Assembly (NCBI RefSeq): GCF_025526975.1
Contig: NW_026515668.1
Coordinates: forward strand, 124,001-188,000
Origin: Fimicolochytrium jonesii
Taxonomy: Eukaryota
Length of the DNA stretch: 64,000 nt
Direction: 5' to 3'
Shown: piece by piece, positions 18,017 to 42,392 of the stretch
How positions within the stretch are numbered: position 1 is the stretch's first letter
Layout of the letters: each line of letters starts with the position of its first letter
Made by a program: the position numbers and the translations under genes
Notes under the pieces: generated by a model
What the model saw: only the letters and a program-made list of their open reading frames with translations
Told to the model about the DNA's origin: nothing
Databases searched by the model: none

Positions 18017-18067
18017 GTGGATCAGTGCATAGCATAAACCATTGGTTTATGCTATGCACTGATCCAC
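18017..18067. repeat. Perfect palindrome, 25-bp arms around a single central T (18042)
   Basis: GTGGATCAGTGCATAGCATAAACCA-T-TGGTTTATGCTATGCACTGATCCAC. Confidence 0.98.
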
Positions 18068-18831
18068 TATACAATTGCACTGTGCATTAACCGTACTGAC
18101 TCCACTCAACACTGTGCATTAACCGTAACGGCTGCTGAAAGTGTAATGCATTAACCGTACTGGCGGGTGTATGGTGTAATGTATTAACAATGTACCCTAC
18201 ACCTTCGGTGTTATGCATTAACCGCACAAGCCTTTCAGCCATTAACCATCCTTGCGCATTTGGGAAAAGGGGGGCAAAGTCAAAATTCCCCCCTACATGC
18301 GTCGAGTCCAACCAACCTTTCTACTACTTCCCCATTCCCTGTTCCATGTAGGGGGGCAAAAAGGCAATTTTCGAACCAACTCTCACCACCAAAAAGAGAC
18401 ATCCTTTTCTCATTCTTCTTTTCAAAACTTTTCATATATCCTCTCATAGGTTTAGAAACTGCCAAAATGCCCCCCCTGTATCTTTTTCCCGTCTGCGGGG
18501 GCATTTTTGAAAAAGGGGGGCAAAACAAAAGGCCGCCTACATGCGTCTAGCCAAACTACCCTTCCTATCTATTCGCCCATACCATATTTCATGTAGGGGG
18601 GCAAAAAGGCAATTTTCGAACCCACCCTCTCCCACACAAATCACACTTCTTTTCTCATTATTGCTTCTCAAATACTTTTTATATATTCTCTCATAGGTTT
18701 TGAAACTGCCAAAATGCCCCCCTACATCTATTATCCCGTCCTCACTCTCTCTTTTCTTTCCACTTCTCTACATTCCTCTAGGGGGGCATTTTCACTTTGC
18801 CCCACTTCTCAAAATGCCCCCCGCTTATTCT
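18061..18831 (+). repeat. Left terminal inverted repeat (771 bp)
   Basis: Reverse complement of 41622-42392, with only a handful of substitutions and two compensating 1-nt indels seen by eye. Confidence 0.97.
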
Positions 18832-21515
18832 ATATACGTCTCTCCTTCTCTGGTCGCCTTTTTCAGTCCGAGGAACCATATGTTCCCTCTTATTTTTCGT
18901 TCCTTGATTTGAATGGTTGTTAGTTCTTTGAAGAATTGCTGCTTTCCGACGCGCCTCGATTGATCGAGAACCGTAACGGAATACTCCTTGTATAAATCAG
19001 ATCTCGTCACTCGGTCCTCATCACTTCCTGTGATATCGTAGTGGAACTTCAACCATTTCGCTGCTGCCAAACTGTTCGCTAGGTTCTTTTGGGTGAAGGC
19101 TCGTACCTCTGCAGGGACTTCAATGCTCATATTGAGGGTTTTATCTTCCTTCACAAAACGTTTGCGGAATATGCCAATGAGAAGCAAGATGAACTCGTCC
19201 CGACATGCATTCGTTTTGAAGTATCCTTTCAATTTCATATCACCTTCTTTTTGAAGTTGTTCCTCCTGAATTCCATCTCCCTCTTCCTCGATTGGTTCAG
19301 AGCCATTGAGAGTGAAACTGTATGGAAACTCTTGCATTCGCACCCGATTGCACAATGCGAGGTCTATTTTATCAAAGACCGGGTCTTCATTTGTCTGAAC
19401 ATTGGTTTGCCCAGTGATTGGAAAACTGATGGGTTTACCGTTAAGTGTTCTCACTGTTATCTTATCATTCCCTGACACTTTCTTGAACATTTCAGATAAA
19501 AATCGATCATTCTTATTTGTTTCGCTTGTCATCAGATACCTCTTTCCGAAGCAATTGTATAGTTGCGAGTTTGCTTTGTCAACATCTTGCTGCTCTCGGG
19601 TAAAGTTTTTCTTGTCCAAGGTATAGAAGTAATTTCCAAACGTAACAGCAAGGAGAGTACCTTCCACACCCTTTCCGTTCCGACCCGGCCCCTTGAGGAT
19701 TGTGAAGATTTCCTCAACTAGTTCTCCGTAGAGACACCTCGCAACATTGCAAAGTCGGTAAGTCATCAATTCTTCAGTTCGGAATATAGATTGGTAAAAG
19801 TTTTCAATCTTCTCACGCATCTCAGGGCTTCGTGTCGTCGGATAGTTGTAACCACATGTGAATAGTATGTAATCATCCCATTTGATGGGTCTTGCCTCTC
19901 CTTCAATCAGGTCGTACACTTTATCGTTAAAAGCAAATAGGTGAGGCTTTGAGAGAAAAAGTTCGATGCAGGTGTCGTTTGCGATACAGAGCCGTTCCAC
20001 GTTCTGTGCTACATTGATGGAGTACGTAGTCTCCTCGATCAGCATTCGAAACTTTTCGTAAATCAATCGCAGTTTCAAATACTTACCGTGCTCACTTTTT
20101 TGTGATTCAAAATCATCTAGTAGTTTCTCAAAACTGCTAATCAACGTGTCTGCAATCTGAAGATTCAAGTCGCTATTTCGGACCCCGCCCTCATACTTTC
20201 GCCAGATATTATCTTTGCCTAGAACAAACATCAAGCCGCTTGAATGTTTTAATAAAGTCTCACCTCGCTCTTCAATGAACCATTCAGCGGTATTCTTGTG
20301 GCTAATATTCAAAATTCGGCGGAAATCAAACTTCTCCCAACCTGTTAGACCTTCCAAATCTTCACAAGTTACAACAATATCCTTTTCTTCACTCGTTTTT
20401 GCGGGTTCAGTAATGGGCGGGAACAAGTCCAAGATCTTTTTGCTTTTATGAACATAGGTTTTTGAGCGTTCACAGTGCTGACATTTGAACGTGAATTTTT
20501 TTCGATCCACTATGAAGAATATTTTGGGAACGGAGACATCGTGTTCTGCGTGGTGCAACATGCAGTATGTGGTTCTCAAAAATACCACAATCGCATCCTC
20601 ATATTGTTGTACGGCCCCAAAATCTCTTTCCAAATATTCCGTTTTTCCACAGAGTTTGGTAACTGAATCGTAAATAGTGCTGATTACCTCCGTATTAGCA
20701 TCGTTGTAAATAGGATATTTTGCCTTTTTCTTCTTTGGTTGCGGTTGGTCTTCAAGGTCCGAGTCCGGAACCAGGACAAATTCATCATTGGCAGGACGCT
20801 TTCTACTATCAGATTGAATTGTCCATTCAACCGGGGTCCAGTCCGCCTCTACATATTGAATGATATACGAAGAGATTGGTGCATCCGGTTCGCTTTTGAT
20901 GAGAAGTCGGTTATCCCAACGATTTTTGACTTTGTCCACCATCACCATGGACCGATTGTTGTCATAGACAGAAAGATCAAAAAATCCATCCTTGAAATTG
21001 TAGTCTCGAACAACATCCGGGAAGTCGGACAAATCTGGGATGAATTTCTTGAGTTTCTTCTTCATTTCATTCCGGGTCGTATACATACCGTCTGCCCATA
21101 GGCGATAAGAGACTTTATATCCACCACCGGTTTCGACGTATTTACCATTTTTGTCCTTGGTGTGCTTAGGAGCGTATCCCATTGTACGGAACGCAGAATG
21201 AAAAGTAATATCCTCATTTAAATACAAGGAGGTAAATACTTTATCAACACCTTTACGGATTTCAGTCTCGACTTCTTCAGAGGGCAGATCGGATTCTTCC
21301 TCAAATCTCATATCGAAATCGACAAACAATTTGATCTTGTCATTGGCGCCCAATTTTGTAAAGTTTTCGGTAAGCCACTTGTGTTCCATATGTTTCTTTT
21401 CGTATTCTTCGAGTGTCCAATTGAACTCGGGAACACCTCCGAAGTAAGATTCCTTGAAATGATAGATGTCTCTGATAGGTTTGGATTCAACGTGAGCAGC
21501 AAATTTGGAAGACAT
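18825..21515 (-). CDS. AEP-type primase / Zn finger / D5-like SF3 helicase fusion (896 aa)
   Basis: N-terminal KLFVDFD, KVSYRL and FDLSVYD primase-like motifs. C..HHAEH...CQHC metal site. FAFNDKVYDL (D5_N), Walker A GPGRNGKG, LMTSE, KKVSGNDKITVR. Stop codon lies inside the TIR. Confidence 0.88.
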   Translation of the reverse strand: MSSKFAAHVESKPIRDIYHFKESYFGGVPEFNWTLEEYEKKHMEHKWLTENFTKLGANDKIKLFVDFDMRFEEESDLPSEEVETEIRKGVDKVFTSLYLNEDITFHSAFRTMGYAPKHTKDKNGKYVETGGGYKVSYRLWADGMYTTRNEMKKKLKKFIPDLSDFPDVVRDYNFKDGFFDLSVYDNNRSMVMVDKVKNRWDNRLLIKSEPDAPISSYIIQYVEADWTPVEWTIQSDSRKRPANDEFVLVPDSDLEDQPQPKKKKAKYPIYNDANTEVISTIYDSVTKLCGKTEYLERDFGAVQQYEDAIVVFLRTTYCMLHHAEHDVSVPKIFFIVDRKKFTFKCQHCERSKTYVHKSKKILDLFPPITEPAKTSEEKDIVVTCEDLEGLTGWEKFDFRRILNISHKNTAEWFIEERGETLLKHSSGLMFVLGKDNIWRKYEGGVRNSDLNLQIADTLISSFEKLLDDFESQKSEHGKYLKLRLIYEKFRMLIEETTYSINVAQNVERLCIANDTCIELFLSKPHLFAFNDKVYDLIEGEARPIKWDDYILFTCGYNYPTTRSPEMREKIENFYQSIFRTEELMTYRLCNVARCLYGELVEEIFTILKGPGRNGKGVEGTLLAVTFGNYFYTLDKKNFTREQQDVDKANSQLYNCFGKRYLMTSETNKNDRFLSEMFKKVSGNDKITVRTLNGKPISFPITGQTNVQTNEDPVFDKIDLALCNRVRMQEFPYSFTLNGSEPIEEEGDGIQEEQLQKEGDMKLKGYFKTNACRDEFILLLIGIFRKRFVKEDKTLNMSIEVPAEVRAFTQKNLANSLAAAKWLKFHYDITGSDEDRVTRSDLYKEYSVTVLDQSRRVGKQQFFKELTTIQIKERKIRGNIWFLGLKKATREGETYIE

Positions 21516-21620
21516 GGTGCTTTACTAAGAATACACTTAGAAGTTTAAATGGCATTTAAACGCAAGTAACAAAAATAAACATATATGTACCAATAAAGAA
21601 GCATCGTTATTGCTACAAAG

Positions 21621-21902
21621 ATGTACATTCCTTACAACTATATTGCATCACTCTTTGAGGATGGAGAAATCAAGACTGTCACAGGCCGGAGCGTCCGTGA
21701 TCTTGCTAGAAAACTAGATATTGCCGCATCCACTGTTGCGCGAATTTTGGGTAATGTAGAATCATGCAGGACGCGGAGACACATCACCATCAAAAGGACA
21801 CTGAAAGAGCCTTTGAGTACGAAATCAGATGATCGGGATCAATCCGAATCGAATTCTATCTTGAAACCTTTAGGTTCCTTTGACTTGACCCAACAATCGT
21901 AG
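21621..21902 (+). CDS. Small putative helix-turn-helix DNA-binding protein
   Basis: SVRDLARKLDIAASTVARIL fits an HTH pattern. Divergent from the primase gene. Confidence 0.55.
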   Translation: MYIPYNYIASLFEDGEIKTVTGRSVRDLARKLDIAASTVARILGNVESCRTRRHITIKRTLKEPLSTKSDDRDQSESNSILKPLGSFDLTQQS

Positions 21903-22045
21903 CAGTATGGCCGATTTTTGATGTAGGGAATAGGTTCTGATTGGCATTCAGCGGTCTTGCATTTTCGAGTTCCTTCCGGGTAATTAATTTTGCCTGAAGG
22001 AGAGCGCTTTGGATACCAAGGACGCATTGTTTCTTTGAAATTCAT
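21839..22045 (-). CDS. Small putative zinc-finger protein (68 aa)
   Basis: CKTAEC...YCYDC cysteine pairs. Overlaps the convergent HTH ORF. Confidence 0.4.
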   Translation of the reverse strand: MNFKETMRPWYPKRSPSGKINYPEGTRKCKTAECQSEPIPYIKNRPYCYDCWVKSKEPKGFKIEFDSD

Positions 22046-22107
22046 TCAAATTGATATGTACAAGGAACTATTTACTTATTTACAATTGTAACGCATATTT
22101 CCACAAA

Positions 22108-24399
22108 CTACTCTTCAATGGCTTTTGATAGGATGTCAATATCGCTCAGTAGGAACTTATCACGTCCTCCATGTTTGTCCCCCTCCTCTTCCTTCAACCG
22201 GATCCCGTAAAACCCGGTTGTTTGGACCCCGTCGATTCGTCGGTTCGTACCAAAGGAGACGGCAGGGTACGCGTGAAGCAGGAAAGCCTTGAAATCCTGG
22301 GTCCGCGGTGAGCATTTGCGCCATACTGGATGCTGTTTTGTCCAATTTTGGAGGCACGCCATAGCCATGCATTGTCGCATTTTGGCGCCTTCTTCAATAG
22401 CGCACATTTCTTTTACAAAAGTTCGATACGGATGCACTCTTGTGACTAAATCTGCAGTCGCTGAAATCACTGACGCGGGCTTGCTCAGTAATGGATATTC
22501 TTCCGTTTGAAGATGATCGTGATGCAAAGAAACCATGAGTGCCATCATGGCACTCGCTAAGTCCCGGTCTTCGTTGTTGATGAGCCGGTCGAGTTCACCG
22601 TCCTTGTAATATACATGTTGACTCGGATCTTCATGTTCATGAGCGCTGACGAACTTCGATTTGCAAGGTATTACAACCAACTTGTCCGTAATATCTCTGT
22701 GATCGTTGTCGTAGAGTCCACAATCGAAATATGGAAGATGATTTGTAGCGAGAACAACCAATCCCGTTATCGTAAGTTCTTCATTCTTGCCATAAGCCCT
22801 CCTAACGTACGCAGAATCTCCTCCGACAGCCATTTTGACGGCCGAGCCGGAATACAAATCCTTCTCATCCCCTTCAGAAAACCAAGTGATAAGTGTTGAT
22901 TTTTGCCCCATTTTCCAGTGAATGTCAGACGGCTTATTTCCGTTCCCCGGTTTGCTTTGTAGGCTGCTGGCGGTCGCTCCCAGAAACCGATAACATGTCA
23001 TAAGTTTCATCAATCTTCCAACCAAACTTTTGCCATTGGAACTTGGACCGTAAAGTATAAGCAGTTCACGAAGACCGCGTCTGCTTCCCAGGATGGTACT
23101 GAGATTGGTGAGCCCGAAGAAACGATCGGAGGAATCAGGCCACATTTTGCAAAAGGCATCCCACAAGTACCGCTGTTTGGGATACTTCTCGGGATCCCAC
23201 TCAACAAGATCATAGTCAAACGCTTCAATATCGCCGTCTTCATCGGTGCGCTCCCGATATTCACCGACTTTTCGGTCGTAAACAAGGCCGTTTCTGAAAG
23301 CGATCAGATGGCTGTTGTCCACAGGAGGCTTGGCGTCCTCAGCCTCCCTCCATCGCAATCGTCCGAATATGATGTCGACAACCTTCTTGGCTCCTTTACC
23401 AATTTCATGCTTTGCGCCTTCGCTTTGATTCTTGTCGGTGGTATTAAAACAATCGAATAATACTTGACCAACGTACGCGGTGAAGGCTGTTTTGTCGAAG
23501 TGGGTGTTTGTGCGCGTCGCAGGATTCCATCGTACGAAGCCTTTGGTGTCGTTCAATCGAATGAGATGCCCATAAAACCGTTCGAAGAACTCGGCGGCAG
23601 GGGTTACCCATTGACCCTTTTTCTTTTTGTCCTCTGTTGATTTCGGGTTTATGTGTGCTATCAAAGCATGGCCAAATTCCCAAAACGAAACACGGATAGT
23701 GCACGGTTTGCATTGACACTGGAACATATCATGAGTCGATCCTGCCTTCTGCGAAGAAGCCAGATCTTCATGAGAAACAAGCGCGGTGCTGCCATCGATA
23801 GATTTGTGACGTTCCTGGGGGTCATCATTGTTGGCGGCGATTTGGTTGTTGTCAATCTGGATCTCTTCGTTTTCATTGACTTTCATCTGCAATCTAGGGA
23901 TATCGGGCGGGTTGACACTCGGAGTGCCCGGAAGGATTCGGTCAGGCACATCGTCCAGACGTACCTGGGGATGATCGTTATTGACATCGGTTTGGTTGTC
24001 AATCATGACGTTTTCATTTTGATTGACATCCATCTGCAAGCCAACGAGACCGGGCTTGTTGATCGTCGGAGTGTTTTGAGTCGAAGGAGAATCCAATGGC
24101 TCGATGCTCAAATTCATAGGATCGATATCGAAAATATTGTCCAAGTCCAACGCAACTGGGAAGTCGATATGGTCTTCATTGCAATTCACTTCGTTATTGA
24201 TCACATTTAAAGACCCCGGTTCAGCCCTTTGGACGGTACGTTTGGCTTTTTTGATGCGCTTCGGAGCCAATTCCATGGTGTTTTGGCGTTTTTGCATGTT
24301 GAGAACGTGCGTTGGTTGAAAGTTATGGCGAAAGCGGTTGTGTGCAATAGTTGTTAAGAGTGAGGAACTGTTTGAAATTTTTTGAAGGGAAACAAACAT
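22108..24399 (-). CDS. Second D5-like SF3 helicase without a recognisable primase domain
   Basis: IAFRNGLVYD (D5_N), Walker A GPSSNGKS, WFSE, KMAVGGDSAYVRRAY, LATNHLP. True start may be a downstream Met. Confidence 0.85.
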   Translation of the reverse strand: MFVSLQKISNSSSLLTTIAHNRFRHNFQPTHVLNMQKRQNTMELAPKRIKKAKRTVQRAEPGSLNVINNEVNCNEDHIDFPVALDLDNIFDIDPMNLSIEPLDSPSTQNTPTINKPGLVGLQMDVNQNENVMIDNQTDVNNDHPQVRLDDVPDRILPGTPSVNPPDIPRLQMKVNENEEIQIDNNQIAANNDDPQERHKSIDGSTALVSHEDLASSQKAGSTHDMFQCQCKPCTIRVSFWEFGHALIAHINPKSTEDKKKKGQWVTPAAEFFERFYGHLIRLNDTKGFVRWNPATRTNTHFDKTAFTAYVGQVLFDCFNTTDKNQSEGAKHEIGKGAKKVVDIIFGRLRWREAEDAKPPVDNSHLIAFRNGLVYDRKVGEYRERTDEDGDIEAFDYDLVEWDPEKYPKQRYLWDAFCKMWPDSSDRFFGLTNLSTILGSRRGLRELLILYGPSSNGKSLVGRLMKLMTCYRFLGATASSLQSKPGNGNKPSDIHWKMGQKSTLITWFSEGDEKDLYSGSAVKMAVGGDSAYVRRAYGKNEELTITGLVVLATNHLPYFDCGLYDNDHRDITDKLVVIPCKSKFVSAHEHEDPSQHVYYKDGELDRLINNEDRDLASAMMALMVSLHHDHLQTEEYPLLSKPASVISATADLVTRVHPYRTFVKEMCAIEEGAKMRQCMAMACLQNWTKQHPVWRKCSPRTQDFKAFLLHAYPAVSFGTNRRIDGVQTTGFYGIRLKEEEGDKHGGRDKFLLSDIDILSKAIEE

Positions 24400-24531
24400 T
24401 TTTTTACCCTTTTATATTTTTTCGTGGCGGTTTTCCTTTCCGCAAACGGGAAAGAACAACATCCGCAACCTCACCTAACTGTAAAGTAAATGATATCAAC
24501 ATGTAGAAACAGTACCCAGGTGGTAACCGAC

Positions 24532-24845: not shown

Positions 24846-24966
24846 TTGAATCCTGATGAAATCGGAGTTCCACCTGTAAGTATTCGCGCGCGATGACATA
24901 AACATGCGTTTAAGATCGATATTAGCGCTGTGATTAAATTTCTTTTTTAAAGAGTAAAAACGAGTA

Positions 24967-26119
24967 ATGGTTTATGCACAACCAAAGAACGACACAGCAA
25001 TGAACATTGAACTAGCAAAGAAACTTATCAACCGTTATGCCGATACCGTCCAACAAAAGAATGGACGGATAGGATTGGCTGCGAGTAGTCGAAAAACGTA
25101 CCTCTCTGCCTGTAATGCACTTGAAGCATACGGGACTCTTGATCCGAACGTTCTATCATCGCCAACCGATGTCATGAAAATCTTGAAAAAGAATTACCCC
25201 AAAGAGTGGAGCGAATTGTACAAAGGTGTTGTCTGCTATGTTCAAAATTATGACAAACGAGGAAAAAATAGGATTGTACGATTGGCTTTCGTCTAGCCTC
25301 TACGGTGAAACTGCAAAGAAACGATTCCTAGATGCGTGCACAATGGACAAACTTACGCATATTGACGAAATGGGAGGTTTCTATCTCAAGATCAATAGCG
25401 ATCGTTGTAAAGAGATACAAGCCCGCGATCTCGTAATGGATAAAGAATATGAAACGAAGCGCTTCATTGAAAAAGACCCTTTAATCAACGCTCTTTACGA
25501 GAAATTGGATCAACTTAAAGAAAAGGCGGTCAAAGACCCTTATAAGTATGGTTTGTTGCTTGGAGCGGCTTGTTTCGTTGGGTCGGATGTTATTCAAAGA
25601 GCGGACATTGGCCAAGCAAAGTTTATGCACATTTCCGAAGCGGATAATGTTACATTTGATACGGAAACCCATACCTTTCTTATAAAAATATGTAATAGGA
25701 ATAAGGGGGACACCGATGTTCTTATTACGGTTATCGATGACATTGTCAAAAGGCACATTGATAATCTGGTTGATATTCGTAAGGCCAAAGGACAGAGTAA
25801 ATTGTTTGAAAAAGCGCGAAACGCAGGTAAACCCTATGAAGGCGGAGGTTTTGGAAGGGCTATGAAGATCGCTTGTAAACAACATATCGGAAAAGAACTC
25901 GGAGTCAATGAACTTAGAAAAATCGTAGTGATTGACTCGATCAAATTGGATAACGGAGATCCTAGGGTCCAAAAAGAGTTTGCGAAAAAGCATGGTCATT
26001 CCTATGCAACACGACAAGTGTATTATAACCTTCACAGGGAGAACGAAGGCTCATCTAATGATTATGCGATGGATATCGACGATCTTAATGACGATTTAAA
26101 TCTAGATGACAAGTTTTGA
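24967..26119 (+). pseudogene. Tyrosine recombinase (YR), split by one frameshift near 25200
   Basis: ORFs 24967-25296 and 25226-26119 overlap in adjacent frames. C-terminal catalytic pattern: QRAD (R), RNK (K), VNELRK (H-x-x-R position), HGHS, VYY (Y). Confidence 0.75.
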
Positions 26120-26126
26120 AAACCTA

Positions 26127-27365
26127 TTATCCATTTTGCTCTTCATACTCGGCTATGGCCTCCCGTGCATTTTCGAGATTCCCTTCATCTTCCCAAGTTG
26201 ATTGGGACGCATCATAACCACTCCATAGAACCTTGTACTGCTTTATCCTTCTGTTGCCTCTACGTACTACTCTTGAATCAAGTATTGAATCAATTTCGTA
26301 TTCGTCGTTTTCATTTGGATCTGGCTGGGAAGCGATGTTTGGTACGGTGACAGTTCCATCAGGAACCAAGCGAAGATCGTTAGCAGATGTTAAACCGGGA
26401 AGTCTTGTTCCATCCATTCGGTTTAATCTATACGATGAAACATAACCTGCATAGTTACTTTGCACTTTCCCATCAATTCTATAAGTTTGTGACGAGAAAT
26501 ATCCCACCTTTGCGCGCCTTTTGATACCACTCGGTAACGGTATTATCTTTCTTACAACATCTCCCACTTTAAATTCGTTCAAAACTGTTGATTTCACTCC
26601 TTTCAATTTCTTGTTCCGTATGCGATCAAATATGGCTTCATGTTCATCTTGTAAGATTTCGTTTGAAGCCTTCCCTGTCGCATACGTTTTCGTGTTGTTT
26701 AAATTATCTATGAGTTTTTGAAGATAATTTGGCCAATCCCGTTTTCCGAATTGGATCGAGGAATAGATCAGATTTTTTATATTTTTGTTAACGGATTCTA
26801 TCTGTCCTTGTCCTTGCGGGACACCGGGTTGTCCGAACTTCCACTCCACGTTATTCGAGTCAGCCCACTCTTGCACCAGACCTTGAAATTCCGTACCTAC
26901 ATCGGATGTGAAACTTACTAATACAGCGCCATCCCGTTTCATTGTTTCTAGAAACTTGACAACAGTGGCTTGATCTTGTGTCTTCATTGCCATACTGTAC
27001 ACTTTTTTGGTGAGAATGTCTGAAGCGTTGACAGAATACTTATATCCATTGTATGCTACGGACAGCAAGTTTATACAATCGATCTGGTAGTTTCCTTCTT
27101 TTCTGGCCAAAATCGGTTTTATCGAGCCTCGGGATCCCATAACTTTTGTGCTCCTCTGCCAAATCTCTTGCTTCTTGAGAAAGTCGTTAAGAAGGGTTCT
27201 TTGCGAAATCCTACTATTTGGAAACGCTTTTCTATATGCATACCACAATTTGTCTCGTCCTAGAAAGTTTTGATTCTGATAATAAAACGTAGTGAGGTTC
27301 CGGAGATCCTCGGCAGTGATGGGGTCATATCGAAGAGAGGAGGTTCCTGTGTTGTCGGAGTCCAT
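26127..27365 (-). CDS. Retroviral-like (RVE) DDE integrase with C-terminal chromodomain (412 aa)
   Basis: YQID...SDVGTEF...QGQIESVNKNIK catalytic D-D-E. Chromodomain EYEIDSILDSR...YKVLWSGYDASQSTWEDEGNL. Confidence 0.93.
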   Translation of the reverse strand: MDSDNTGTSSLRYDPITAEDLRNLTTFYYQNQNFLGRDKLWYAYRKAFPNSRISQRTLLNDFLKKQEIWQRSTKVMGSRGSIKPILARKEGNYQIDCINLLSVAYNGYKYSVNASDILTKKVYSMAMKTQDQATVVKFLETMKRDGAVLVSFTSDVGTEFQGLVQEWADSNNVEWKFGQPGVPQGQGQIESVNKNIKNLIYSSIQFGKRDWPNYLQKLIDNLNNTKTYATGKASNEILQDEHEAIFDRIRNKKLKGVKSTVLNEFKVGDVVRKIIPLPSGIKRRAKVGYFSSQTYRIDGKVQSNYAGYVSSYRLNRMDGTRLPGLTSANDLRLVPDGTVTVPNIASQPDPNENDEYEIDSILDSRVVRRGNRRIKQYKVLWSGYDASQSTWEDEGNLENAREAIAEYEEQNG

Positions 27366-27893: not shown

Positions 27894-28628
27894 TTAATGC
27901 GTTTCTGGTTGCAATTCTTTAAAGACTCCTTCGTTTGTCGGGCTTTTCAAATCGACGTAGAGCGCATGATAAGGTTTGACAGTATATTTCTCTGCTAAAT
28001 TTACAAACTCCGATTCTGACAAATGACAGCGAATCTCACCCGCAATCTTCTCGTACTGTTTCTGATTAAGTCGATACAAAATCCAATGGGTGGAATTCAC
28101 TCGTTGTAAAGGAGTGAGTTGTTTCGTGTCATGCAGGCTGCATAAAAGACTCCCCCCTGCGTGTCGAAAGCGGGAGTAAAGTAAGTCTAACATCTGTCGG
28201 ATGCCGCTCGATATCAGTTCAGGTTCTTTAGGCTCCTTTCCGATTGCGGGGCCATTTTCTTTTGCGAGAATTCCGAAATCATCGAGGATAAGAAGAAGGT
28301 GATTTTTGGATTTGTCTTGTTTATAAAGAAGTTTCTGCTTCTCGAAAAGGTTGTTCAGAATGTAATTCGATACTACGCTGGACATGTATACATTATCGCA
28401 TTTCTTCAAACTGGTCCATTCCGGCGAGTCAGCGCTTGGAGAGAAAACCACAACATTTTCATACGCTTTTGCACAATTCTGGATGAGATTGATAATACAA
28501 GTAGTTTTCCCTGCTCTTGAACTCCCGACTAGAGTCAAAGTGAAGAATTTCTTCGGATAGTCATCGGGCGTTTTGTCCTTTAGGTGTATCTGATATTCGG
28601 AAGGAATTTTCGGTTTAGCAATTCTCAT
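27894..28628 (-). CDS. A32-like (FtsK/HerA family) genome packaging ATPase
   Basis: Walker A GSSRAGKT, Walker B LLILDD, SRFRH motif and LTPLQRVN. Adjacent to capsid genes. Confidence 0.9.
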   Translation of the reverse strand: MRIAKPKIPSEYQIHLKDKTPDDYPKKFFTLTLVGSSRAGKTTCIINLIQNCAKAYENVVVFSPSADSPEWTSLKKCDNVYMSSVVSNYILNNLFEKQKLLYKQDKSKNHLLLILDDFGILAKENGPAIGKEPKEPELISSGIRQMLDLLYSRFRHAGGSLLCSLHDTKQLTPLQRVNSTHWILYRLNQKQYEKIAGEIRCHLSESEFVNLAEKYTVKPYHALYVDLKSPTNEGVFKELQPETH

Positions 28629-28683: not shown

Positions 28684-29433
28684 ATGTTTCGAGAGATTAT
28701 CCTCAATTCTGGTACGTTACCAGATATGAATAATTGTACATTTCGTCTTCAAAATACCGTCCCGTGCTATGCATGGAGACTGATTTCGGTATCTCTACTG
28801 CAGTCATGGAGTGCGACATCGGATTTCAACAACGCAGTTGTTTTTGCAGAGTCAGGATCTACGACTTTAAGAAAAGCAACTTTGCCCGAAGGGACCTATG
28901 ACTCAACAAACATTTTGAGTGCTCTTGGAAGCGCAATGACTGCAGCGGGGTCGCAGCCATACAGTGTTTCTTACGATGGAGTGACTCGACGACTAACTGT
29001 TTCAACCTCTGGAAGTAAAACGTTCAAGATCCTTGGAGGATCCCGTGGTTCAAGCGCTTTTCTGCAACTTGGGATCGATAAAGTCAATGAAACCGGATAT
29101 GGATCAAGTATAACATTTCCAAACACACTCAATCTATCCGCATCACAACCAATTCTAATAACTTCAAGGACTCTACAGACAAATGGAGCGATTCTTTATC
29201 CGGCTGGTATCGACTCGGGCATCAATACCTTAGCGGCGATAAATCCTGATTCGTATGGAGATATCTTGACATGGGTCAACCCGAGTGACAACTTTCATCG
29301 AGCCGAAGATCTCACACTCAATCAAATTGACTTCCAGATTGTAGATAGCGCATCGTTGCAAATTGTGAGAACATCCGCCCCAATAACAATTCATCTGGGA
29401 ATTTTAGACGACCCTAGTGATCTCGTTGTATAA
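28684..29433 (+). CDS. Minor capsid (penton) protein, putative single jelly-roll
   Basis: Begins I-x-L-N-S, carries the LPEGTYDSTNILSAL motif typical of PLV/virophage pentons, beta-rich. Lies between ATPase and MCP. Confidence 0.75.
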   Translation: MFREIILNSGTLPDMNNCTFRLQNTVPCYAWRLISVSLLQSWSATSDFNNAVVFAESGSTTLRKATLPEGTYDSTNILSALGSAMTAAGSQPYSVSYDGVTRRLTVSTSGSKTFKILGGSRGSSAFLQLGIDKVNETGYGSSITFPNTLNLSASQPILITSRTLQTNGAILYPAGIDSGINTLAAINPDSYGDILTWVNPSDNFHRAEDLTLNQIDFQIVDSASLQIVRTSAPITIHLGILDDPSDLVV

Positions 29434-30000: not shown

Positions 30001-31224
30001 ATGTCAACAAATCCCGTTGTTCCTTCAAACTGGATCTATAGTAGCAGACAATTTTCGATGCATTCAGACGCTCTCAGCGAAAATATTGCTGTATATCGCA
30101 CAATCAAGGAGACGTTTAGTTCAAAATCACCTGGAAATGCTATAAAAATCGTGGTTGATTCCAATAGTTCCTTTTTGAGACCTCAACGTTCGTATCTATC
30201 GGGAACAATTTCTGTGAAGAACGCGGATGGCAGCCCCGTCACGGATGCGCAGATTTCTCAAATCGGGGCGATGGCTTGCTTCCGAACGATGAACATAAAA
30301 TTTGGCGGAAAAGTTGTAGACGAAATTGAAGATATGCCAAGTTTTGTTGCGGACACTCTCCAGTTTGTGGAGGCAGAGAAACGAAAATACCTAAAATATA
30401 ACGAAGGAGCAGGTAACGCGGATGCGTTCAAAAATCCCAACGGAACTTTCACATTCAAACACCATTTGTTAGCAGGGTCCATGAGAAATTTGAACGGAAA
30501 CCCGATTCCACTAGCGATTTTGCCAAATCAATCGGTGGAATTGACATTTACTTTGAACACACCACAGCAAGCCTTTACAAACGTCGGTTCTGGAGTATAC
30601 TTTGAAGTTTCAAATCTTCGTTATGTAGCACAACTTGTGGTCCCGAGTGCCGCTTATATGTCCGCATTGTGGTCCGGGATAAGGGCTGGTAAGTATCTTG
30701 AAATGGATGTAATAGGCGTTCAACAACTCTCCAATGTATGTAGTGGTGCGTCACAGAACAACTTCATCCTCCCACTTACAAACGGCCGGACTGTCGGATT
30801 AACACATAGGTTTAGAGACGATAATAAATACGCCACTACATCAGGGGACAAAAGTTTGATTTATGATACAGCGAACTTGAAGTCATGGCGTTACCAGATA
30901 GGACAATATAGATTACCTTTGACCGAAGATTTCCAAATAGAAGATACGGTTATGATAGGCAACCTCTCCATGAACGACAACACATCATACGCCTCTGAAG
31001 ACCTGGACCTCGATAACTTTTACAACAAACAGTTCGTAATGCGTTATTCGTGGCAAAGCGCAGATGAAGATTCCAGTAGCGCTTTGAACCTACTCGGAGG
31101 CTCCGGAAACGTACATCTAATTACGACACATAATTTACCCGCCCCTAGTACCGCCGTCGCATTGCAAACAACCGTCTATTCACAACGCACCATCTTGATT
31201 GGAGCAACCGTCGATATCGTATAA
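30001..31224 (+). CDS. Major capsid protein, putative double jelly-roll (407 aa)
   Basis: FLRPQRSYLSGTI and FRTMNIKFGGKVVDEIED resemble PLV MCP N-terminal motifs. Size, beta-rich composition and context next to penton and ATPase agree. Confidence 0.8.
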   Translation: MSTNPVVPSNWIYSSRQFSMHSDALSENIAVYRTIKETFSSKSPGNAIKIVVDSNSSFLRPQRSYLSGTISVKNADGSPVTDAQISQIGAMACFRTMNIKFGGKVVDEIEDMPSFVADTLQFVEAEKRKYLKYNEGAGNADAFKNPNGTFTFKHHLLAGSMRNLNGNPIPLAILPNQSVELTFTLNTPQQAFTNVGSGVYFEVSNLRYVAQLVVPSAAYMSALWSGIRAGKYLEMDVIGVQQLSNVCSGASQNNFILPLTNGRTVGLTHRFRDDNKYATTSGDKSLIYDTANLKSWRYQIGQYRLPLTEDFQIEDTVMIGNLSMNDNTSYASEDLDLDNFYNKQFVMRYSWQSADEDSSSALNLLGGSGNVHLITTHNLPAPSTAVALQTTVYSQRTILIGATVDIV

Positions 31225-33286: not shown

Positions 33287-33306
33287 TTTTCTTTAGCAAT
33301 TAGTAA

Positions 33307-36300
33307 ATGAGCGGTCTAAATTCCCGAACCTCAAGCGGAATCAGAGTGCTTGAACGAACAAATCTCGTTTCTCCTTTAGTGACCAATAGTCTTCGTGCTA
33401 ATGGAGAGAACGTATCAATTGATAATTTCATTCAGCAGGCTTTCAAAAGGTATCAAATGAAAACGGACCGATCCTTGTGAATGACATCGTTGAGAGCGAA
33501 GATGCGATTATTCACAAAACCGAAGGAGTGGCTTCAATTGAAGTAGTCCATGACAATATGGAATTTCCACTTGCAAGAGACGACGGAAGCCGAACTGTTT
33601 CCCTTTTGACAAACCTGCCTCTTGGAGTAAGTCAGGACGGATTGACTTTGTTCCACGATCAGACTCTTTCAGTGAGCAATGAAGGTTTGACTGTAAATTT
33701 TCCCCCGCCTGATCTGGAAAATCTGCAAGAACCCTTGTCAAGAGACGATGAAGGACTTAAATTGAATTTTGATGAGGATTCATTGGAGGTGAATAATGGT
33801 AAATTGGAAGTTGTCAAAGAGCCTTTGACAGCCCCTTTGACGCGTAGCGTACAAGGACTCTGTCTTGATATTGACTCTACATTGACAGTTGAAAACGGTC
33901 AGTTGTCAGTTGTTCAAGAAAATGTTGAAGCGATTGTTGACGAGGCTGTTCGAGTAGAAGTTCCGCTTTCAAAAGATGCAGATAAGGCTATCCACCTCGA
34001 TTATGGGAAAGGGTTGAAAGTAAACGATGAAGGGAACTTGGAAACCGACGTTGATACAGTGATTGTTGGGAGAGGGGCTATTTCAAACGATAAAGCAGGA
34101 AGTCTGGCACTCGATGATCTCCTGCAAGAAGGTTTTGATTCCCTTGCGGACTTTTTAGGAGAAGATACGGATGTTGATACAACCGTTGTGCGTTTGAGGA
34201 CATCTGACGACTTTCAACAGACTGGGAACAAATTGGCGATCCGTTCGAAGGGTATGGGGCAAATACCATTCTATTCTGCATTATCGGGGTTAAATGGAGA
34301 CAGTAGTTTTATGTATAATGAAACACTCAATGAACTACATGTTCCGCATGTATACGTTAACAGCAACTTCAACCCTTCGAATAATGAAGTGGTGACATCC
34401 GGGAACGTAGAGCAATTGTACCAAGCAGGGTCAGGTATAGACATATCCGGAGTGTCCAATGGTCGGCGTACTATCGATGTTAGAACAGATGCAAGTTTAG
34501 CAATTGACTCTTCACAAAATCTTTCAGTAAATCCGTCGGCTATCGTTGACAATAAAGGTGTTCGCATCGTAAATGATAAAATTGCGATAGGACTAACTTT
34601 TCAACCTGGAAATGGCGGATTGAAATTAGAGAATTCGAATCAAGTGAAACTCGCTCCATCTGTCTCAGGTTCAATCACATTCGATGGTAACAACACGTTC
34701 GGTGAGAAACTCACAGCAAGTAACGGAGTTAAACGCATAGAAGATGATTTGCAGTTGGATTTACAGCCTGGTGATTCGACTGTTACGGTAGCAGGCAATT
34801 CGATTAAGGGCGCATATACAGGATCTAATGGAGTGTCAGTTACGGGAAACACTATTTCCGGGGCCTACACCGCCGGAAACAATATATCCATTTCAGGGTC
34901 GAGCATCAGTTGCACATATCAACCTGAGCCGGAAACACCAACGGTAATTACCGGCGCTTTACCTATCATTGTAACTGGAGCAGATAAGGAGTATAACATC
35001 GCGAAACAACCTTTGGTTTTAACAGGGGGCTCCGGAATCCTCGTTGTTGGCTCCGAGGAAACCGGTTTCAATATCTCCTCGATTCAGCCCTACAAAAACC
35101 GGAAAGAAGATGATGATCCAGAAGAGAAAAATGAGGATTCGGAGCCCAGTGGCGAATCTGATCCTTTAACAGCATCTGGATCTAATCCCGTAGTCTCCGT
35201 TACCGGACCCCTTTCAACAATCCTTGGAGGCGCGGTTGGTCTCATTGGCCCTGCGGCTGGCGCTCCATTTGCCACATCTGCTATCGGTGGCGTCGGGGGT
35301 CTTCTTGGAGGACCTGCTGCAGCAGCCGGAATCCTTGGTGGTTTCATCGCTGCAAGTGGTCGAGAGAGAAAGAACCAGAAAGACGCAAATGGTAACAATG
35401 TAGTGGATTCAAAGGGAAACCCTGTTCCAGATCCAAACGGCTCACAAGTTATCATTGCAACTTTCCCTAAAACGGATGATACATCCTGTGATGTTACAAG
35501 ATTACTTTTTGACACTCCACCTCCATGTTCATATCTTGGTATTGCAGGAGAGGTCCCACAGCAGGCAATCAACTTGCAGATGCTCCGCGAATACGATTCT
35601 ACAATCATACAGCCAACTTATTCAAATTTGATAAGTCAGAATACAAGTCTTCTTTTAACTGCTATCGATAGTAAAGTCGCAAAAACGGATACCATTCCGT
35701 ATGCGAGAATAACGGGTGCTCCAGATCTCACCATCTACGAGAAGAAATTAACATTTGCTGGACCTATAATTTCCAGAGATACATCTAATACCATTTCCGT
35801 TAATACCGGAAATATCACTACCCTTGGGACACTCACATCTCTTAACGTAACAGGCGCTTTGACCGCCGGCTCCATAAGCAGTCCCACTCTGAACAATTAT
35901 CTATTATCAAGTGTTGCTTCAACAACGTATCAACCTCTAAATGCTCGTCTTACTAATTTGGGGAACATTGCGCCAACAAACACGTACATGCTTATCGCAA
36001 GCGGAGGCAATTTCATTCAATTTAGTCCTGCAGATGTTCGTGCAAATCTCTCATTAAAAAATCTGAGTTTGCTCGATACTTTAGACTACACTAGTTCGGC
36101 GTTGGTGAACAAACCTACGCTTGGTTTGCTTGCAGCACTTAGCAGTATTGACTATGCTTCGACGTACATTACTGGAAAGCCAACTCTTAATTCTCTTGCA
36201 GCACTGAGTAATATAGATTACACTTCGGCTTTACTTACAAACAAGCCTTCGCTTGGTTCACTTGCAGCACTGAGTAGTATAGATTACACTTCGGCTTTAC

Positions 36301-39300
36301 TGACAAACAAGCCTTCGCTTGGCAGTTTGGCTGCTAAATCCGTTATCAATCTTGCAAGCGCAGATGTCACCGGTATTCTTCCTGTTGGAAGTATTGACCC
36401 GAACATTGTGCTTGCTGGAACCGGTTTGACTAAAAATTCTCAAACTCCAAGTGTCAATTCTGTACAGACACAAATCACATCGGTCGGAACCCTTACTTCC
36501 CTCTCAGTTAGTGGTGCATCTACATTTACTGGAGCGGTAACGATTCCTGCTCCCACCGTCGCATCAAACCCAGCAACAAAATCATATGTGGATGGATTGA
36601 TTTCTACAACATCCGGAAATGCTCAACCTCTTAATCCTAAATTGACTGTTATTTCCTCATCTACCCCAACTGTTAATAATTTTCTCGTAGGAGATGGAAG
36701 TAATTTTGTCTCAACGACTCCATCAGCATCTAGAACAGCACTAGGGCTCGGTTCCGTGGCGTTAAAGAACACCATCACGCTCACAACAGATGTGACAGGT
36801 ATCTTGCCTCTTGCCAATATAGACGCCCAAGTAAGCACGAAAGCCTACGTCGATGCTCAGACATCAACAGTTTGGCGCAGGATTGTCAAAGTCAGGCACA
36901 GCCATTTCAGTCAACACGGATCAGTCGGCTGTTATCACCAAAGTTGGAACTCTGCAGGGGTTGAGTGTTACAGGCGACGTGACCATATCAGGGAACGCCA
37001 TCATCTCGACAGCCCCAACAGCAGATACACATCTCACAAATAAGACTTATGTTGATACGCTTCTAAGTGCAGGAACCGGTTTAACACGTACAGGAAACAA
37101 TTTCTCTGTCAATGTGGCTCAACCTCAGATAACATCAATTGGGACGTTATCATCATTGAGCGTCGGTGGGAATGCGAGTTTTGCTGGAGATGTCACGGTG
37201 TCAGGAAACGCTGTCGTCTCAACAGCACCGACCTTAGCAAATCATCTTACGAATAAGACTTATGTTGATACGCTTCTTAGTGCTGGAACAGGTTTGACAC
37301 GCACTGGAAACGCCTTTAGCGTAAATCCTGCTCAGCCTCAAATTACAAGCGTTGGAACTCTATCATCTCTGAATGTTGGTGGAAGTCTTCAAATTGCAGG
37401 GACGACTGATACTAGTTCAATCACAACTGGCGCTTTACAGGTCGCCGGAGGGGTTGGTATCTCGAAATCATTATACGTCGGTGGATATGGAATCATAAAA
37501 GAATCTACAGCCGGAAATGGACCTTCTGTAGGTCTTATAAACTCAAACGGTGGAGGTTGGACTTTGTGGCATATAGGTCAAACTAGTGGCCTTGGAACTA
37601 ATAATTTCGGCTTATACAACAATACTGCCGCAAATCTTGCGTTATCGGTGAATGTGACAACGAATGCACTAACTATCAATTCGGTATCCGACTCCAACGC
37701 TACAAATGCTGGCGCTTTACAGGTCGCCGGAGGTGTTGGTATCGCCAAGAAATTGACGGTAGGAAGTGATGCGAGTTTTGTCGGGTCAAATCAAAGTATC
37801 TTTTGGTACAACGGTTCGGTATCAACACCCACATTTGGAAGCAGCATAACGGGCAACGTTTCAGCAGCAGGGTATTTTTCCTCAAATTCGGCTATTGGCG
37901 ATATGGTAATTCGGGCACAGTACAATAATTCACCGACAAACTTACGATTCGCTAATGGACCCGGCGTATCAAATCTTGATATATTGACAAATGGAAATGT
38001 TCTAATCAATACAACAACCGACTCCTCTTCTACAACAACTGGCGCTCTAACAGTTGCTGGAGGTCTAGGTGTGGGAAAATCTCTATTTGCTGGTTCAGCC
38101 GCCACGGGAAGTCATACAATGCAAGTAAATTCAACTTCCTTTGACGTTTTGAAACTTCAAAGTCTTTCGGCATCTGGGTTTTCTTCTATCGGTTTTGTTA
38201 ACAACACAGGAACAACGGTGGGAGCATTCGGGTTCGCAGGAGTCAATACGACCGCTCCAAATGCTGGAAACTTCTTCCTATACTCCGGGTCTAATGCCAA
38301 TTTCATAATCAACTCTAACCTCCCCAGTGTACAAATTCTTTCCACCATAGATTCTACTTCGACAACATCAGGTGCATTTCTGGTGAGAGGTGGAGCGGGT
38401 ATTGCAGGAAATGTCAATCTTGGTAAAGATTTGACTGTTAATGGCACAATCTACTCCAATATTGCCTCAACCGGACCTATTGTTAGCAGCCATCTTGGGA
38501 CACCGAACTTGGCAGCGGGGAGTTTCTCAACACTTCCAATTGGAGTAGGAGCGGCTACAAATAACATGGCCAGATTGTACTTTAACTATGCTGGAGCAGG
38601 TCTTGCAACTAATACGTTGGGTTTGGGATTATGGAATGCACCTCAAGGGCTTACAGTGGATGGAACGGGAAAGGTTGTTATTCCTAATGGTTCCATCGGC
38701 AATTTAACAGTGTCAGGAAACATGAATTTCACCGGGAATCTTGCAACAATCAGTGCAACTGGTTCACAAGGTCCTCTCTCCATAGATCCGAACCAAAGTT
38801 CCAACCCTTATGTACGGGTATGGGACGATTTACGGGTGGTAGGCGATTTTTCCGTGTGGAATTCGGCCGAAAATACCACTTGGTTCAAAGTCTTTACAAA
38901 TAATGGTGTTGCATCTGTCTTTACCACAACCGATTCCACAGGCGTTGGATCAGGCGCTCTTCAAGTGTCTGGAGGCGCATCTGTAGCGAAATCTTTATAT
39001 GTTGGGGGAAATCTGAACAACAGTGGTACTGTATCGATCTTGACCACTACTGATGCCACTTCTAACGCATCAGGCGCTCTTCAAGTGAGTGGAGGCGCAT
39101 CTGTAGCGAAATCTTTATATGTTGGGTCAAATCTCAATGTGACCGGTGATTTGAACAGTCCTGCCTTAACATCGAAAACTACTTTGTTCCCTTACCCCAC
39201 AACGCCAGCAACAGGTTCCTCATGGAACGGCTATACAGTTACAGCCTCCAGCGAATACACGTATGCAAATGGAAACGGTGTAGATGGATACACTGGTCAT

Positions 39301-40233
39301 CCATTCGATGCGTACATGAACGCCTCCATTGCATCCAGACTGCGATGGCAAACCAGTTCCACAAGTACAGCCAATTTAGGTTTAGATGGAACAACACAAA
39401 GTCTTCATTACTCTTTATTGAGACTCCCGTCGGCCATTGCTATGAGTTCAATCAAACTCACCGCCTACCTGATGGACGCCGTGGCGATGCCTACTACGTT
39501 CTCCGTGATTGCCGGAACTACCGAGTCCGCTATGGTAACCATTGCAACGTTTTCGAATATACCTGGTTCTACTTGGACCACTGATGGTAATTCATTTAGT
39601 TTTGCCAACGCCACTGCTTACCCTGTTTATGGTATCTCATGGGCATACGCAAATCAAACCACAACCGGAGGGGTCGCTATCCGAAATATTCAATACAATC
39701 AAGCCGTTCCCAAAGCGACCCTTGTCACTGCTTCTGCAAACACTATAGATGTTTCCGGTGCGTTAACTACGGGCACATTCGCAGCAAGTGGTTCAGCAAC
39801 TGTGAATTCCTTGACATGCAATACGAACGTATATGCTTCACAAATCATTCAATCTGCTGTTTGTATCAAAGACGGTGTTGTAGATACGTTGTTGACCAAT
39901 GGAAACGGTTATACAGGCGGGTTTGGTCCGATAATGTGGAAAGCAGGTATGTCTGGCGTCGTTGCTCATGTTAGTTTTATGGGATATATGAATTCGAATA
40001 ACACTCGGGTAACAATAACTGTTCAAATATTGGATCAATCCTCTACCGTAGTCGCCTCTAGAGCAGTCTCGTACTACTGTGATATAAGCAATTATCAGAC
40101 TCGCTACCCATTCAGTTTTCAAGTGCCGTTGCTGTTTTCTTCGACGAATACGCAGTTAAGCGCAAGGATTGTCATACCAACATCTATAACATTATCTAAT
40201 TCATATCTCAACTTTTGGACGCAATGCTACTAA
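33307..40233 (+). pseudogene. Giant fibre/spike gene (~2,300 codons if joined), apparently broken by two frameshifts (~33440 and ~36871)
   Basis: Short ORF 33307-33480, ORF 33477-37043 and ORF 36853-40233 overlap in different frames. Fibre-shaft-like repeats (LTVENGQLSV, GKGLKVNDEGNL), TKxYVD repeats and GALQVAGGVGI repeats. The repeat pattern continues across the 36871 break. Confidence 0.8.
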
Positions 40234-40688
40234 GTATCAATATCAAGAACGCACGCTCGATGGTCTTTGTCTGTTCCACATAGCATTCTCAGTTGTCCCT
40301 TATCGTCTGTGATCCCTAGATACCCGCTCTGAAAAATGAAATCTTTACGGAGACGATTATTCTTCTTGGTAAAAATAGTGTAAATCTGCTTAAAGATTTC
40401 CCGATTCTCGTCATTTATTTTGATATATGCCATGTAACCGGGTTTGTTTAACATAGACCGACATATTCGTTCCAGACTATCGAGGTCTGCTACGAGAAAA
40501 CGAATAACAAAAACTCCCTCGATAAACTTGATATGTGAGTTAATTTCAAAAACGTTCGGCATTGGTTTGAATTTACTCAAGAAATTGACTTTGGCTGTTG
40601 GAGAAAATGCGTCCACAGTATTTCGGGATGAATGGCAACAAAATCGCCCCCACCGCTGTTGAACCGGTCTCAACAAAATCACCCCCAC
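40230..40688 (-). CDS. Hypothetical viral protein (likely start MPNVFEIN at 40562)
   Basis: Convergent with the fibre gene. The upstream part of the ORF runs into a repeat array. Confidence 0.5.
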   Translation of the reverse strand: MGVILLRPVQQRWGRFCCHSSRNTVDAFSPTAKVNFLSKFKPMPNVFEINSHIKFIEGVFVIRFLVADLDSLERICRSMLNKPGYMAYIKINDENREIFKQIYTIFTKKNNRLRKDFIFQSGYLGITDDKGQLRMLCGTDKDHRACVLDIDT

Positions 40689-40826
40689 AAATTTGAACTA
40701 CGTCTCGAAATCGCCCACTCCAAAATTATGCAAGGCGTCCGGAACAAAACACCCCCAGTGGGGGCGATTTTTACGAACCTCTTTACGTTGGGGGTGGGCG
40801 ATTTTACAAAGCCCATCACACGAACG

Positions 40827-40886
40827 GCGGGGGCATTTTGAGAAGTGGGGCAAAGTGAAAATGCCCCCCTAGAGGAACGTAGAGAA
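40827..40886 (+). repeat. Internal ~60-bp copy of the inner end of the TIR
   Basis: gcgggggcattttgagaagtggggcaaagtgaaaatgcccccctagag matches 41629-41689 in direct orientation. Confidence 0.92.
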
Positions 40887-41086
40887 TTAGGAGGATGAAT
40901 AGTATTTAGATACCTACTTGACCATTTATAGATTTGTTTCGAGTTCAATGACCGCTGATCATGTCATATAACCTCATTTCTTGACAGTTAATATCGAATG
41001 TAAGTTGTTATCGGATTTGGTTTCGGTCCCACGCCAAGATTTAAATAGAAGCGACAAGGTGCAGATTGGAGACGTGAGCATTAAAC

Positions 41087-41473
41087 ATGTCTTTCTTCAA
41101 TAAATCGCTTGTCAAAAGGTTAACGGGAGTTTCGCACCGCGAAAAGATGTCCGACGATGATTTCATAACTCGCTGTGGATTTATCACTGGTACGATAATG
41201 GGTTCAGGTTGGGAATGCAAAGAATACTTACGGGACTTTTGCAGATTCAATTCCATCATGAAACCTGCCTGGAAAAAACTGTATGACCGTTGGATTGAAA
41301 ACGAGAAAAAGGAATGGGCTTGCTTCGACGAGCCTGGAAAATTGGAGTTTGTCAAGAATGACGCTGTCACAGAGAGTCTCTCTATGCCCAACGAGTGGGC
41401 TTTTGGCACTGGCAAAATTGAAGAGAATAGTTCAGAAACCACTACCGATGCTATACCTGATAAAGCAGACTAA
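41087..41473 (+). CDS. Hypothetical viral protein (128 aa)
   Basis: Intronless ORF between the internal TIR fragment and the right TIR. Confidence 0.55.
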   Translation: MSFFNKSLVKRLTGVSHREKMSDDDFITRCGFITGTIMGSGWECKEYLRDFCRFNSIMKPAWKKLYDRWIENEKKEWACFDEPGKLEFVKNDAVTESLSMPNEWAFGTGKIEENSSETTTDAIPDKAD

Positions 41474-41621
41474 AGTTCTGAAGGAAAGCAAAGATTTGAA
41501 TGTAACGTAATTTTAAACAATGAACGAAAGAATGTTCGTATTGGTGGATGTCACAGTAGAGTATGAGTTTGTCATTTACTGTAACGGGGTCGACTAATGA
41601 AGTAGGGAAATCTATTTTCTC

Positions 41622-42392
41622 AGAATAAGCGGGGGGCATTTTGAGAAGTGGGGCAAAGTGAAAATGCCCCCCTAGAGAAATGTAGAGAAGTGGAAAGAAA
41701 AGAGAGAGTGAGGACGGGATAATAGATGTAGGGGGGCATTTTGGCAGTTTCAAAACCTATGAGAGAATATATAAAAAGTATTTGAGAAGCAATAATGAGA
41801 AAAGAAGTGTGATTTGTGTGGGAGAGGGTGGGTTCGAAAATTGCCTTTTTGCCCCCCTACATGAAATATGGTATGGGCGAATAGATAGGAAGGGTAGTTT
41901 GGCTAGACGCATGTAGGGGGGCATTTTGTTTTGCCCCCCTTTTTCAAAAATGCCCCCGCAGACGGGAAAAAGATACAGGGGGGGCATTTTGGCAGTTTCT
42001 AAACCTATGAGAGGATATATGAAAAGTTTTGAAAAGAAGAATGAGAAAAGGATGTCTCTTTTTGGTGGTGAGAGTTGGTTCGAAAATTGCCTTTTTGCCC
42101 CCCTACATGGAACAGGGAATGGGGAAGTAGTAGAAAGGTTGGTTGGACTCGACGCATGTAGGGGGGAATTTTACTTTGCCCCCCTTTTCCCAAATGCGCA
42201 AGGATGGTTAATGGCTGAAAGGCTTGTGCGGTTAATGCATAACACCGAAGGTGTAGGGTACATTGTTAATACATTACACCATACACCCGCCAGTATGGTT
42301 AATGCATTACACTTTCAGCAGCCGTTACGGTTAATGCACAGTGTTGAGTGGAGTCAGTACAGTTAATGCACAGTGCAATTGTATAGTGGATC
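41622..42392 (-). repeat. Right terminal inverted repeat (771 bp)
   Basis: Reverse complement of 18061-18831. Ends ...GTATAGTGGATC. Confidence 0.97.

Follow-up and report, generated by a model that had tools for sequence, protein, structure and literature searches.

Here, we present an analysis of the two ends of an endogenous Polinton-like virus (PLV) in the fungus Fimicolochytrium jonesii. The virus interrupts the gag gene of a gypsy retrotransposon and lies in a stretch of 64 kb, which is called the window in the following (all coordinates are positions in it). Its ends are unequal: the left one carries a perfect 51-nt palindrome, and the right one holds just 7 of these 51 nt. The arrangement points to an insertion by the tyrosine recombinase (YR) encoded by the element itself, acting on a circular form with head-to-head-joined ends and crossing over at a core that lies off the axis of the palindrome. 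We give this reading a probability of about 0.5; the odds attached to all readings are judgements and were not computed. Based on a single copy, the choice of the YR over the RVE integrase of the same element, which is the less probable of the two, is tentative.

Palindrome, putative core and motif at the ends of the virus

The terminal inverted repeats (TIRs) differ by five mismatches and two gap columns in 772. The original prediction had placed the 7-mer GTGGATC at both ends of the insertion, found its complement GATCCAC at the tip of the left TIR (18061-18067), and described 37 extra nucleotides (18024-18060) at the left end only; all of these coordinates were confirmed. The direct repeat is exact over 7 bp and extends by 0 nt on either side. 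Overlooked in that earlier reading was the fact that the 37 nt and both 7-mers together form the palindrome. It is the longest one in the window, where the runners-up have arms of 9 nt, and its predicted fold (-30.5 kcal/mol, z = -10.3) was equalled by none of 200 shuffled sequences.

If the right TIR is joined to the left end, one long palindrome results, whose first mismatch lies 50 nt off its axis. Because the 37 nt and the 7-mers form the 51-nt palindrome, the two ends add up to one TIR-palindrome-TIR junction and one extra GTGGATC, and neither loss nor duplication of host sequence is required. We infer that the palindrome represents either such a head-to-head junction or an opened hairpin tip. 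The repeat of 7 bp at both junctions has the size of the 6-8-bp core expected in the attL and attR products of a YR, the spacer of these enzymes being 6-8 bp long (PMC3212892; here and below, statements on cited work refer to the available portions of the sources). A single YR crossover would account for a palindrome on one side only, a repeat of core size, the lack of a target-site duplication (TSD), and an intact gag frame.

In the proposed course of events, a circle would have been formed by joining the two inverted ends head to head, and strand exchange with a matching host site would have taken place at the 7-bp core, at a distance of 19-25 nt from the axis of the palindrome. The palindrome itself would most likely be a hairpin tip in unfolded form, from a genome whose replication involves no protein-primed polymerase. 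Loose targeting, as in Cryptons and in the endogenous viral elements (EVEs) of phaeoviruses, would have to be assumed, since there is no similarity between the host flanks and the viral arms. The frameshift in the YR gene would either postdate the insertion, or the enzyme would have been supplied by a sister copy.

The pronounced stability of the hairpin would favour the improbable explanation that a right-hand palindrome exists in the DNA and was lost in sequencing or assembly, and consensus errors could also lie behind the breaks of frameshift type in the YR and fibre genes. A skipped hairpin, however, should retain the TSD and drop the entire stem, whereas here part of the arm is kept and a TSD is absent. 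Moreover, the assembly includes this very hairpin at its left-hand position.

A 13-nt motif is repeated at the termini, its pattern being derived from the terminal copies alone. One copy lies in the palindrome arm and six in the left TIR, three of them at a spacing of 32 nt, with a mirrored arrangement in the right TIR. The 22.8-kb interior contains the motif once (0.03 expected), located 21-33 nt upstream of the YR methionine at 25000, which matches the start of the homologues. This distribution suggests that the motif is a candidate binding site of the YR. The TIRs also contain an internal repeat of about 245 nt, and a 67-nt internal copy (91%) of an inner TIR segment with inverted motifs of G/C runs is found at 40829-40895.

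Table 1. Features of the viral insertion and the interrupted gag gene, in order along the window
Feature	Position	Strand
Gypsy gag, 3' part	16953..18023	-
Endogenous PLV, 24.4 kb, inside gypsy gag	18017..42392	
Left 7-mer GTGGATC, putative crossover core; alternative RVE-type start is TG at 18018-18019	18017..18023	+
Perfect 51-nt palindrome, left end only: 25-nt arms and central T at 18042	18017..18067	
13-nt motif RTGCAT(T/A)AACCRT, seven copies	18030..18249	+
Left TIR	18061..18831	+
D5-type primase-helicase, 896 aa	18825..21515	-
Second D5-type primase-helicase-like protein, 763 aa	22108..24399	-
Best interior copy of the 13-nt motif	24967..24979	-
YR gene, frameshift-split (24967-25296 and 25238-26119)	24967..26119	+
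Stand-alone RVE integrase with chromodomain, open frame	26127..27365	-
A32-type packaging ATPase (Pfam Pox_A32, E 1e-7)	27894..28628	-
Probable minor capsid protein, from position and size	28684..29433	+
Probable major capsid protein, from a weak Pfam Capsid_N match (E 0.083)	30001..31224	+
Fibre-like ORFs in two overlapping frames; adenovirus fibre repeat in the first	33558..40233	+
Right TIR; ends in the 7-mer, without the remaining 44 nt of the palindrome	41622..42392	-
Right 7-mer GTGGATC	42386..42392	+
Gypsy gag, 5' part, 39 codons	42393..42509	-

The interrupted gag gene and the inserting enzyme

The 3' part of gag shares 79% identity with a Fimicolochytrium gag across 323 aligned residues and stops early relative to the latter. 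Comparison with the gag relatives indicates that little host sequence was lost and that the residues PV.A immediately left of the insertion belong to the host. Keeping one copy of the 7-mer restores an open reading frame (ORF) of 395 codons (..PRPTP-DPPVDAPH..) without a gap against the relatives at the junction, in agreement with the original prediction. A test of codon compatibility, in which 7% of random 7-mers fit the A-S-P of the relative, is weak, because shifted alignments accommodate 1 and 4 nt equally. For the gypsy element, no pair of long terminal repeats was found. On the minus strand, an ATG at 18033-18035 contributed by the palindrome stands in the reading frame of the 3' gag part (ORF 16953-18035, MLCT-DPPV...), and a tandem array of TGACAT/TGACAC occupies 16666-16756 within the gag 3' region.

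It had further been argued that an RVE integrase would join the TIR tips symmetrically and duplicate unrelated target sequence. A scan of all boundary pairs for duplications of 4-8 nt recovered the 7-mer, a few 4-mers, and TGGGGT, besides sub-words of the 7-mer and of TGGGGT, none of which was acceptable as a TSD of unrelated host sequence. As a 6-bp TSD, TGGGGT (18001-18006/42393-42398) was rejected: it cuts gag to 48 codons, removes PV.A, and is at a chance level of about 2-4%. The argument overlooks published RVE-associated elements that end in palindromes of about 52 nt beside TSDs.

Several observations weigh against an insertion by the YR. When retained lengths of 0-7 nt were tested, gag was reopened by 1, 4, and 7 nt (393, 394, and 395 codons), and the scores against the closest gag relative (231/223, 229/230, and 228, respectively) do not discriminate between them. 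The 7-mer had been taken to be present in donor and target alike. It is indeed carried by the TIR tip of the donor, but its presence in the target is something we infer, since 1, 4, or 7 nt fit gag equally and both copies could be viral. In the latter case the 7-nt repeat needs no coincidence, because a truncated right tip always repeats the palindromic left tip. Inverted arms of 11-13 bp as in loxP or dif sites were not found round the core, each of the six arm pairs having 2-4 matching positions out of 13, nor do host and viral arms look alike; a loxP-type site is thereby excluded and any targeting by the YR would be loose. The YR gene is broken between two overlapping frames at about 25200-25296, and position 154 is R here and K in 18 of 20 family members. 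The RVE integrase, in contrast, looks intact, with an open frame, the triad D96-D155-E190, and D,D35E spacing. The left end can also be read as a 49-nt TG...CA palindrome from 18018, similar in length to the terminal palindromes of RVE-associated elements, and TG...CA is the end of a retroviral integrase substrate. With a start at this TG, the left end would fit the palindrome type of Halocafeteria elements. In addition, the insertion is known from one copy only. Finally, the EMALEs of Cafeteria, some of which carry both enzymes, have ordinary TSDs, mostly of 3-5 bp, and for their YR a role in integration into giant viruses was proposed (PMC8547959).

A tentative alternative is that a linear genome with hairpin ends was inserted by the RVE integrase, giving the 49-nt TG...CA palindrome at both ends and a short TSD, as in the Halocafeteria type, and that the right palindrome and one TSD copy were deleted later. 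The residual 7 nt would then automatically repeat the left tip, the required TG is present, the enzyme looks intact beside a broken YR, and a single retained nucleotide reopens gag as well as seven do. Furthermore, 52-nt palindromes beside TSDs are published for RVE-bearing elements without protein-primed PolB (bioRxiv 10.64898/2026.07.28.741278). However, a second event would be needed in a copy that is young as judged by its nearly identical TIRs. This deletion would have to take away 43 viral nt together with the entire TSD, stay compatible with the gag frame (1 in 3), cost few host bases, and by chance leave 7 nt, the size of a YR core. Under the 1-nt parse its breakpoint lacks microhomology, as is read directly from the sequence, and at this locus there is neither a palindrome at the right end nor an unrelated host TSD.

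We consider it unlikely that host break repair captured a fragment of a viral end junction or opened hairpin via microhomology at both ends, without any viral integrase. Asymmetric ends, the missing TSD, the lack of arm symmetry, and a site within a decayed retrotransposon would all suit such an event. On the other hand, each TIR extends in full to the same 7-mer, gag requires no host deletion, and the identity of the 7 nt at the two junctions would call for a staggered cut or a coincidence of about 1e-4.

A doubtful but more elaborate possibility is a life cycle in which both integrases use one site. The RVE integrase would insert the hairpin-ended linear genome, leaving a palindrome at both ends, and the YR would excise and re-insert a circle. 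For excision, the YR would recombine the two palindromes, these being direct repeats of each other as well, and release a circle with one head-to-head junction. Re-insertion at host sites matching GTGGATC would follow, and the present copy would be the footprint of this second route; these steps are to be regarded with the same reserve as the whole. As the junction contains the core twice in inverted orientation with inner arms of 18 bp, its cruciform would equal a Holliday intermediate of the YR, and thus the YR could also restore the hairpin ends with no need of a protelomerase. Within this scheme, the motif copy preceding the YR gene might act as an autoregulatory site.

For an insertion of this copy by the YR from a circle, as originally proposed, there speak the predicted fold of the enzyme, the sum of the ends as junction plus core, and the break in gag caused by the sole 6-mer TSD candidate. 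Against it count the still hypothetical 7-mer in the target, the missing inverted arms, a split YR next to an intact-looking RVE integrase, and the published RVE-associated elements with terminal palindromes.

Two integrases and the gene content of the element

A full HMMER search revealed 22 relatives of the YR at E <= 0.001, and a word-index protein search gave none. The alignment comprises 19 of the 22, with three short fragments left out. A fold model of the C-terminal ORF only, based on this alignment, reached a pLDDT of 84 (the single-sequence model, with a pLDDT of 34, was unusable). It matched XerA in Foldseek with E 2e-4, and the structural matches (VIA) had Z-scores of 12.2 for XerA, 11.5 for Cre, and 10.6 for IntI. 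According to this model, the YR is predicted to have the catalytic fold of lambda Int and to be XerA/Cre-like. Protelomerases score lower (TelK 7.3, TelA 6.6-6.7, ResT 5.0), a rank that would still be compatible with such an activity of the YR. The observed junction lies off the palindrome axis, at which a telomere resolvase would act. The catalytic residues R121, R227, H254, and Y263 are located in the downstream ORF and conserved in 18-19 of 20 family members, and the first His position of the R-K-H-R-H/W-Y set varies across the family.

On an 81,652-bp contig of Gaertneriomyces, homologues of the YR and of the capsid protein are five locus tags apart, which argues that the YR is native to the virus family. 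On a 171,636-bp Fimicolochytrium contig, a YR homologue (KAI8815687.1) and a gag relative (KAI8815692.1) are separated by five accessions, and the gag model lacks about 28 residues spanning the point equivalent to the insertion site. This proximity may reflect a preference for the gypsy family or merely a repeat-rich cluster. A gene model of Spizellomyces (P0050) fuses a cytosine methyltransferase to a YR of the same family and probably represents adjacent genes of a related element.

The GC content is 43% inside the element and 55-56% in its flanks. This shift, the long TIRs, a size within 15-30 kb, and the A32 packaging ATPase place it among the PLVs. A Pfam scan of 16 ORFs of the element gave no match to protein-primed PolB, and two D5 primase-helicases are present instead; judged by its ORFs, the element would fall outside the Polintons sensu stricto, for which this polymerase is the criterion. 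A stand-alone RVE integrase with a DDE triad together with such replication genes corresponds to the Halocafeteria type. The assignment of a major capsid protein, expected to be of the double jelly-roll type in a PLV, is probable but weak: the ORF has 13 homologues, the named ones all from chytrids, Capsid_N is detected in only two of the 13 (best E 0.02), and the protein has no PDB match by sequence. For the minor capsid candidate, no family match was obtained. A second frameshift-type break lies at 36853-37043, where two long ORFs of the fibre-like set overlap out of frame with each other; recoding, decay, or an error in the consensus may be the cause.

Among the relatives of the capsid, YR, and gag proteins, those with names belong to Fimicolochytrium, Gaertneriomyces, Geranomyces, Powellomyces, Phlyctochytrium, and Spizellomyces, which points to a chytrid from this circle as the host. 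Searches with the capsid ORF, the capsid alignment, the D5 and ATPase proteins, two YR homologues, and the palindrome pattern found no related DNA loci in viral contigs, and searches of metagenome contigs, genome contigs, and phages gave none either.

Elsewhere in the window, a viral gene model of Geranomyces has a weak tblastn match (E 0.006) at 10545-10910 to an unassigned 498-aa ORF (9951-11447), which may mark a second viral remnant. Direct repeats at 3586-3671 and 9536-9629 (77% and 98%), separated by 5.95 kb, are perhaps the ends of another mobile element, and a host PDR-type ABC transporter is encoded at 55360-59756 on the minus strand, 13 kb from the element.

Relation to known systems

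Terminal palindromes of 52 nt beside TSDs were described for endogenous virophages (subtypes 1, 2, 5, and 6) and PLV subtype 4 of Halocafeteria seosinensis, and hairpin priming was proposed (bioRxiv 10.64898/2026.07.28.741278). The present element shares with them a palindrome of about 50 nt outside the TIR, replication genes other than protein-primed PolB, and an RVE integrase. In the Halocafeteria elements, the palindromes flank the TIRs next to TSDs, whereas here the palindrome is one-sided and an unrelated TSD is absent. Some of the virophages carry both RVE and YR, but, as far as the available part of that source extends, none of its PLVs does, unlike the PLV studied here.

YR-encoding PLVs are known from cryptophytes, for which circular donors were proposed and some of which have TSD-like repeats of 7-23 bp, partly symmetric (PMC12220804), and from the oomycete Phytophthora sojae, where a YR/helicase PLV is listed with a 7-bp TSD (PMC7805220 Table S4). 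These elements are similar to ours in their TIRs, the combination of helicase-primase and YR, and occasional TSD-like repeats of 7 bp or longer. In contrast to the present case, their junctions are not resolved into core and palindrome in the portions available (PMC12220804, PMC7805220). A stand-alone RVE integrase next to a YR was not found in the accessible description of the cryptophyte set, and the strings "palindrom" and "hairpin" have 0 occurrences in its main text (PMC12220804). YR genes have also been linked with primase-helicase end modules (PMC11296320, bioRxiv 10.64898/2026.10.13.758929).

For the phaeovirus EVEs of Ectocarpus, attP and telRL sites have been shown (PMC13236599). They feature a viral YR, minimal homology between attP and attB, asymmetric ends, and a switch from circle to hairpin-ended linear form, and thereby resemble our element, for which circle and hairpin ends are proposed. 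However, they are giant viruses with a CC core surrounded by inverted repeats, and with a telRL site and a protelomerase as separate components (PMC13236599). In our element, core and palindrome fall together, and the model of the YR is nearer to XerA/Cre (Z 11.5-12.2) than to TelK/TelA (6.6-7.3). Cryptons are likewise fungal YR elements with short terminal direct repeats that were read as recombination substrates of a circular form, but they have no TIRs and repeats of 4-6 bp, whereas the present element has TIRs of 770 bp, packaging and probable capsid genes, and an RVE integrase (PMC3212892).

No junction details were contained in the available portions of PMC13533422, PMC10120064 (whose screen left out fungi), bioRxiv 10.1101/2022.07.28.501842, and bioRxiv 10.1101/2025.10.09.676808. 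A full-text search of the non-subscription literature gave no publication combining the terms polinton-like, tyrosine recombinase, and attP, and no description of a one-sided terminal palindrome was recognized there from titles and the beginnings of abstracts. Terminal palindromes and YR cores are each known already; no publication was found in which the two coincide at one end of a fungal PLV with both integrases.

Should the RVE integrase have inserted the virus and a deletion have followed, the locus would be one more PLV with palindromic tips and a damaged end, and of modest interest. Published proposals on YR-encoding viruses, in the portions available, invoke circular donors or integration into giant viruses without a defined site. 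The locus described here offers a base-exact candidate attP together with a core and a binding motif, and it ties a candidate recombination site to the recently described terminal palindromes.

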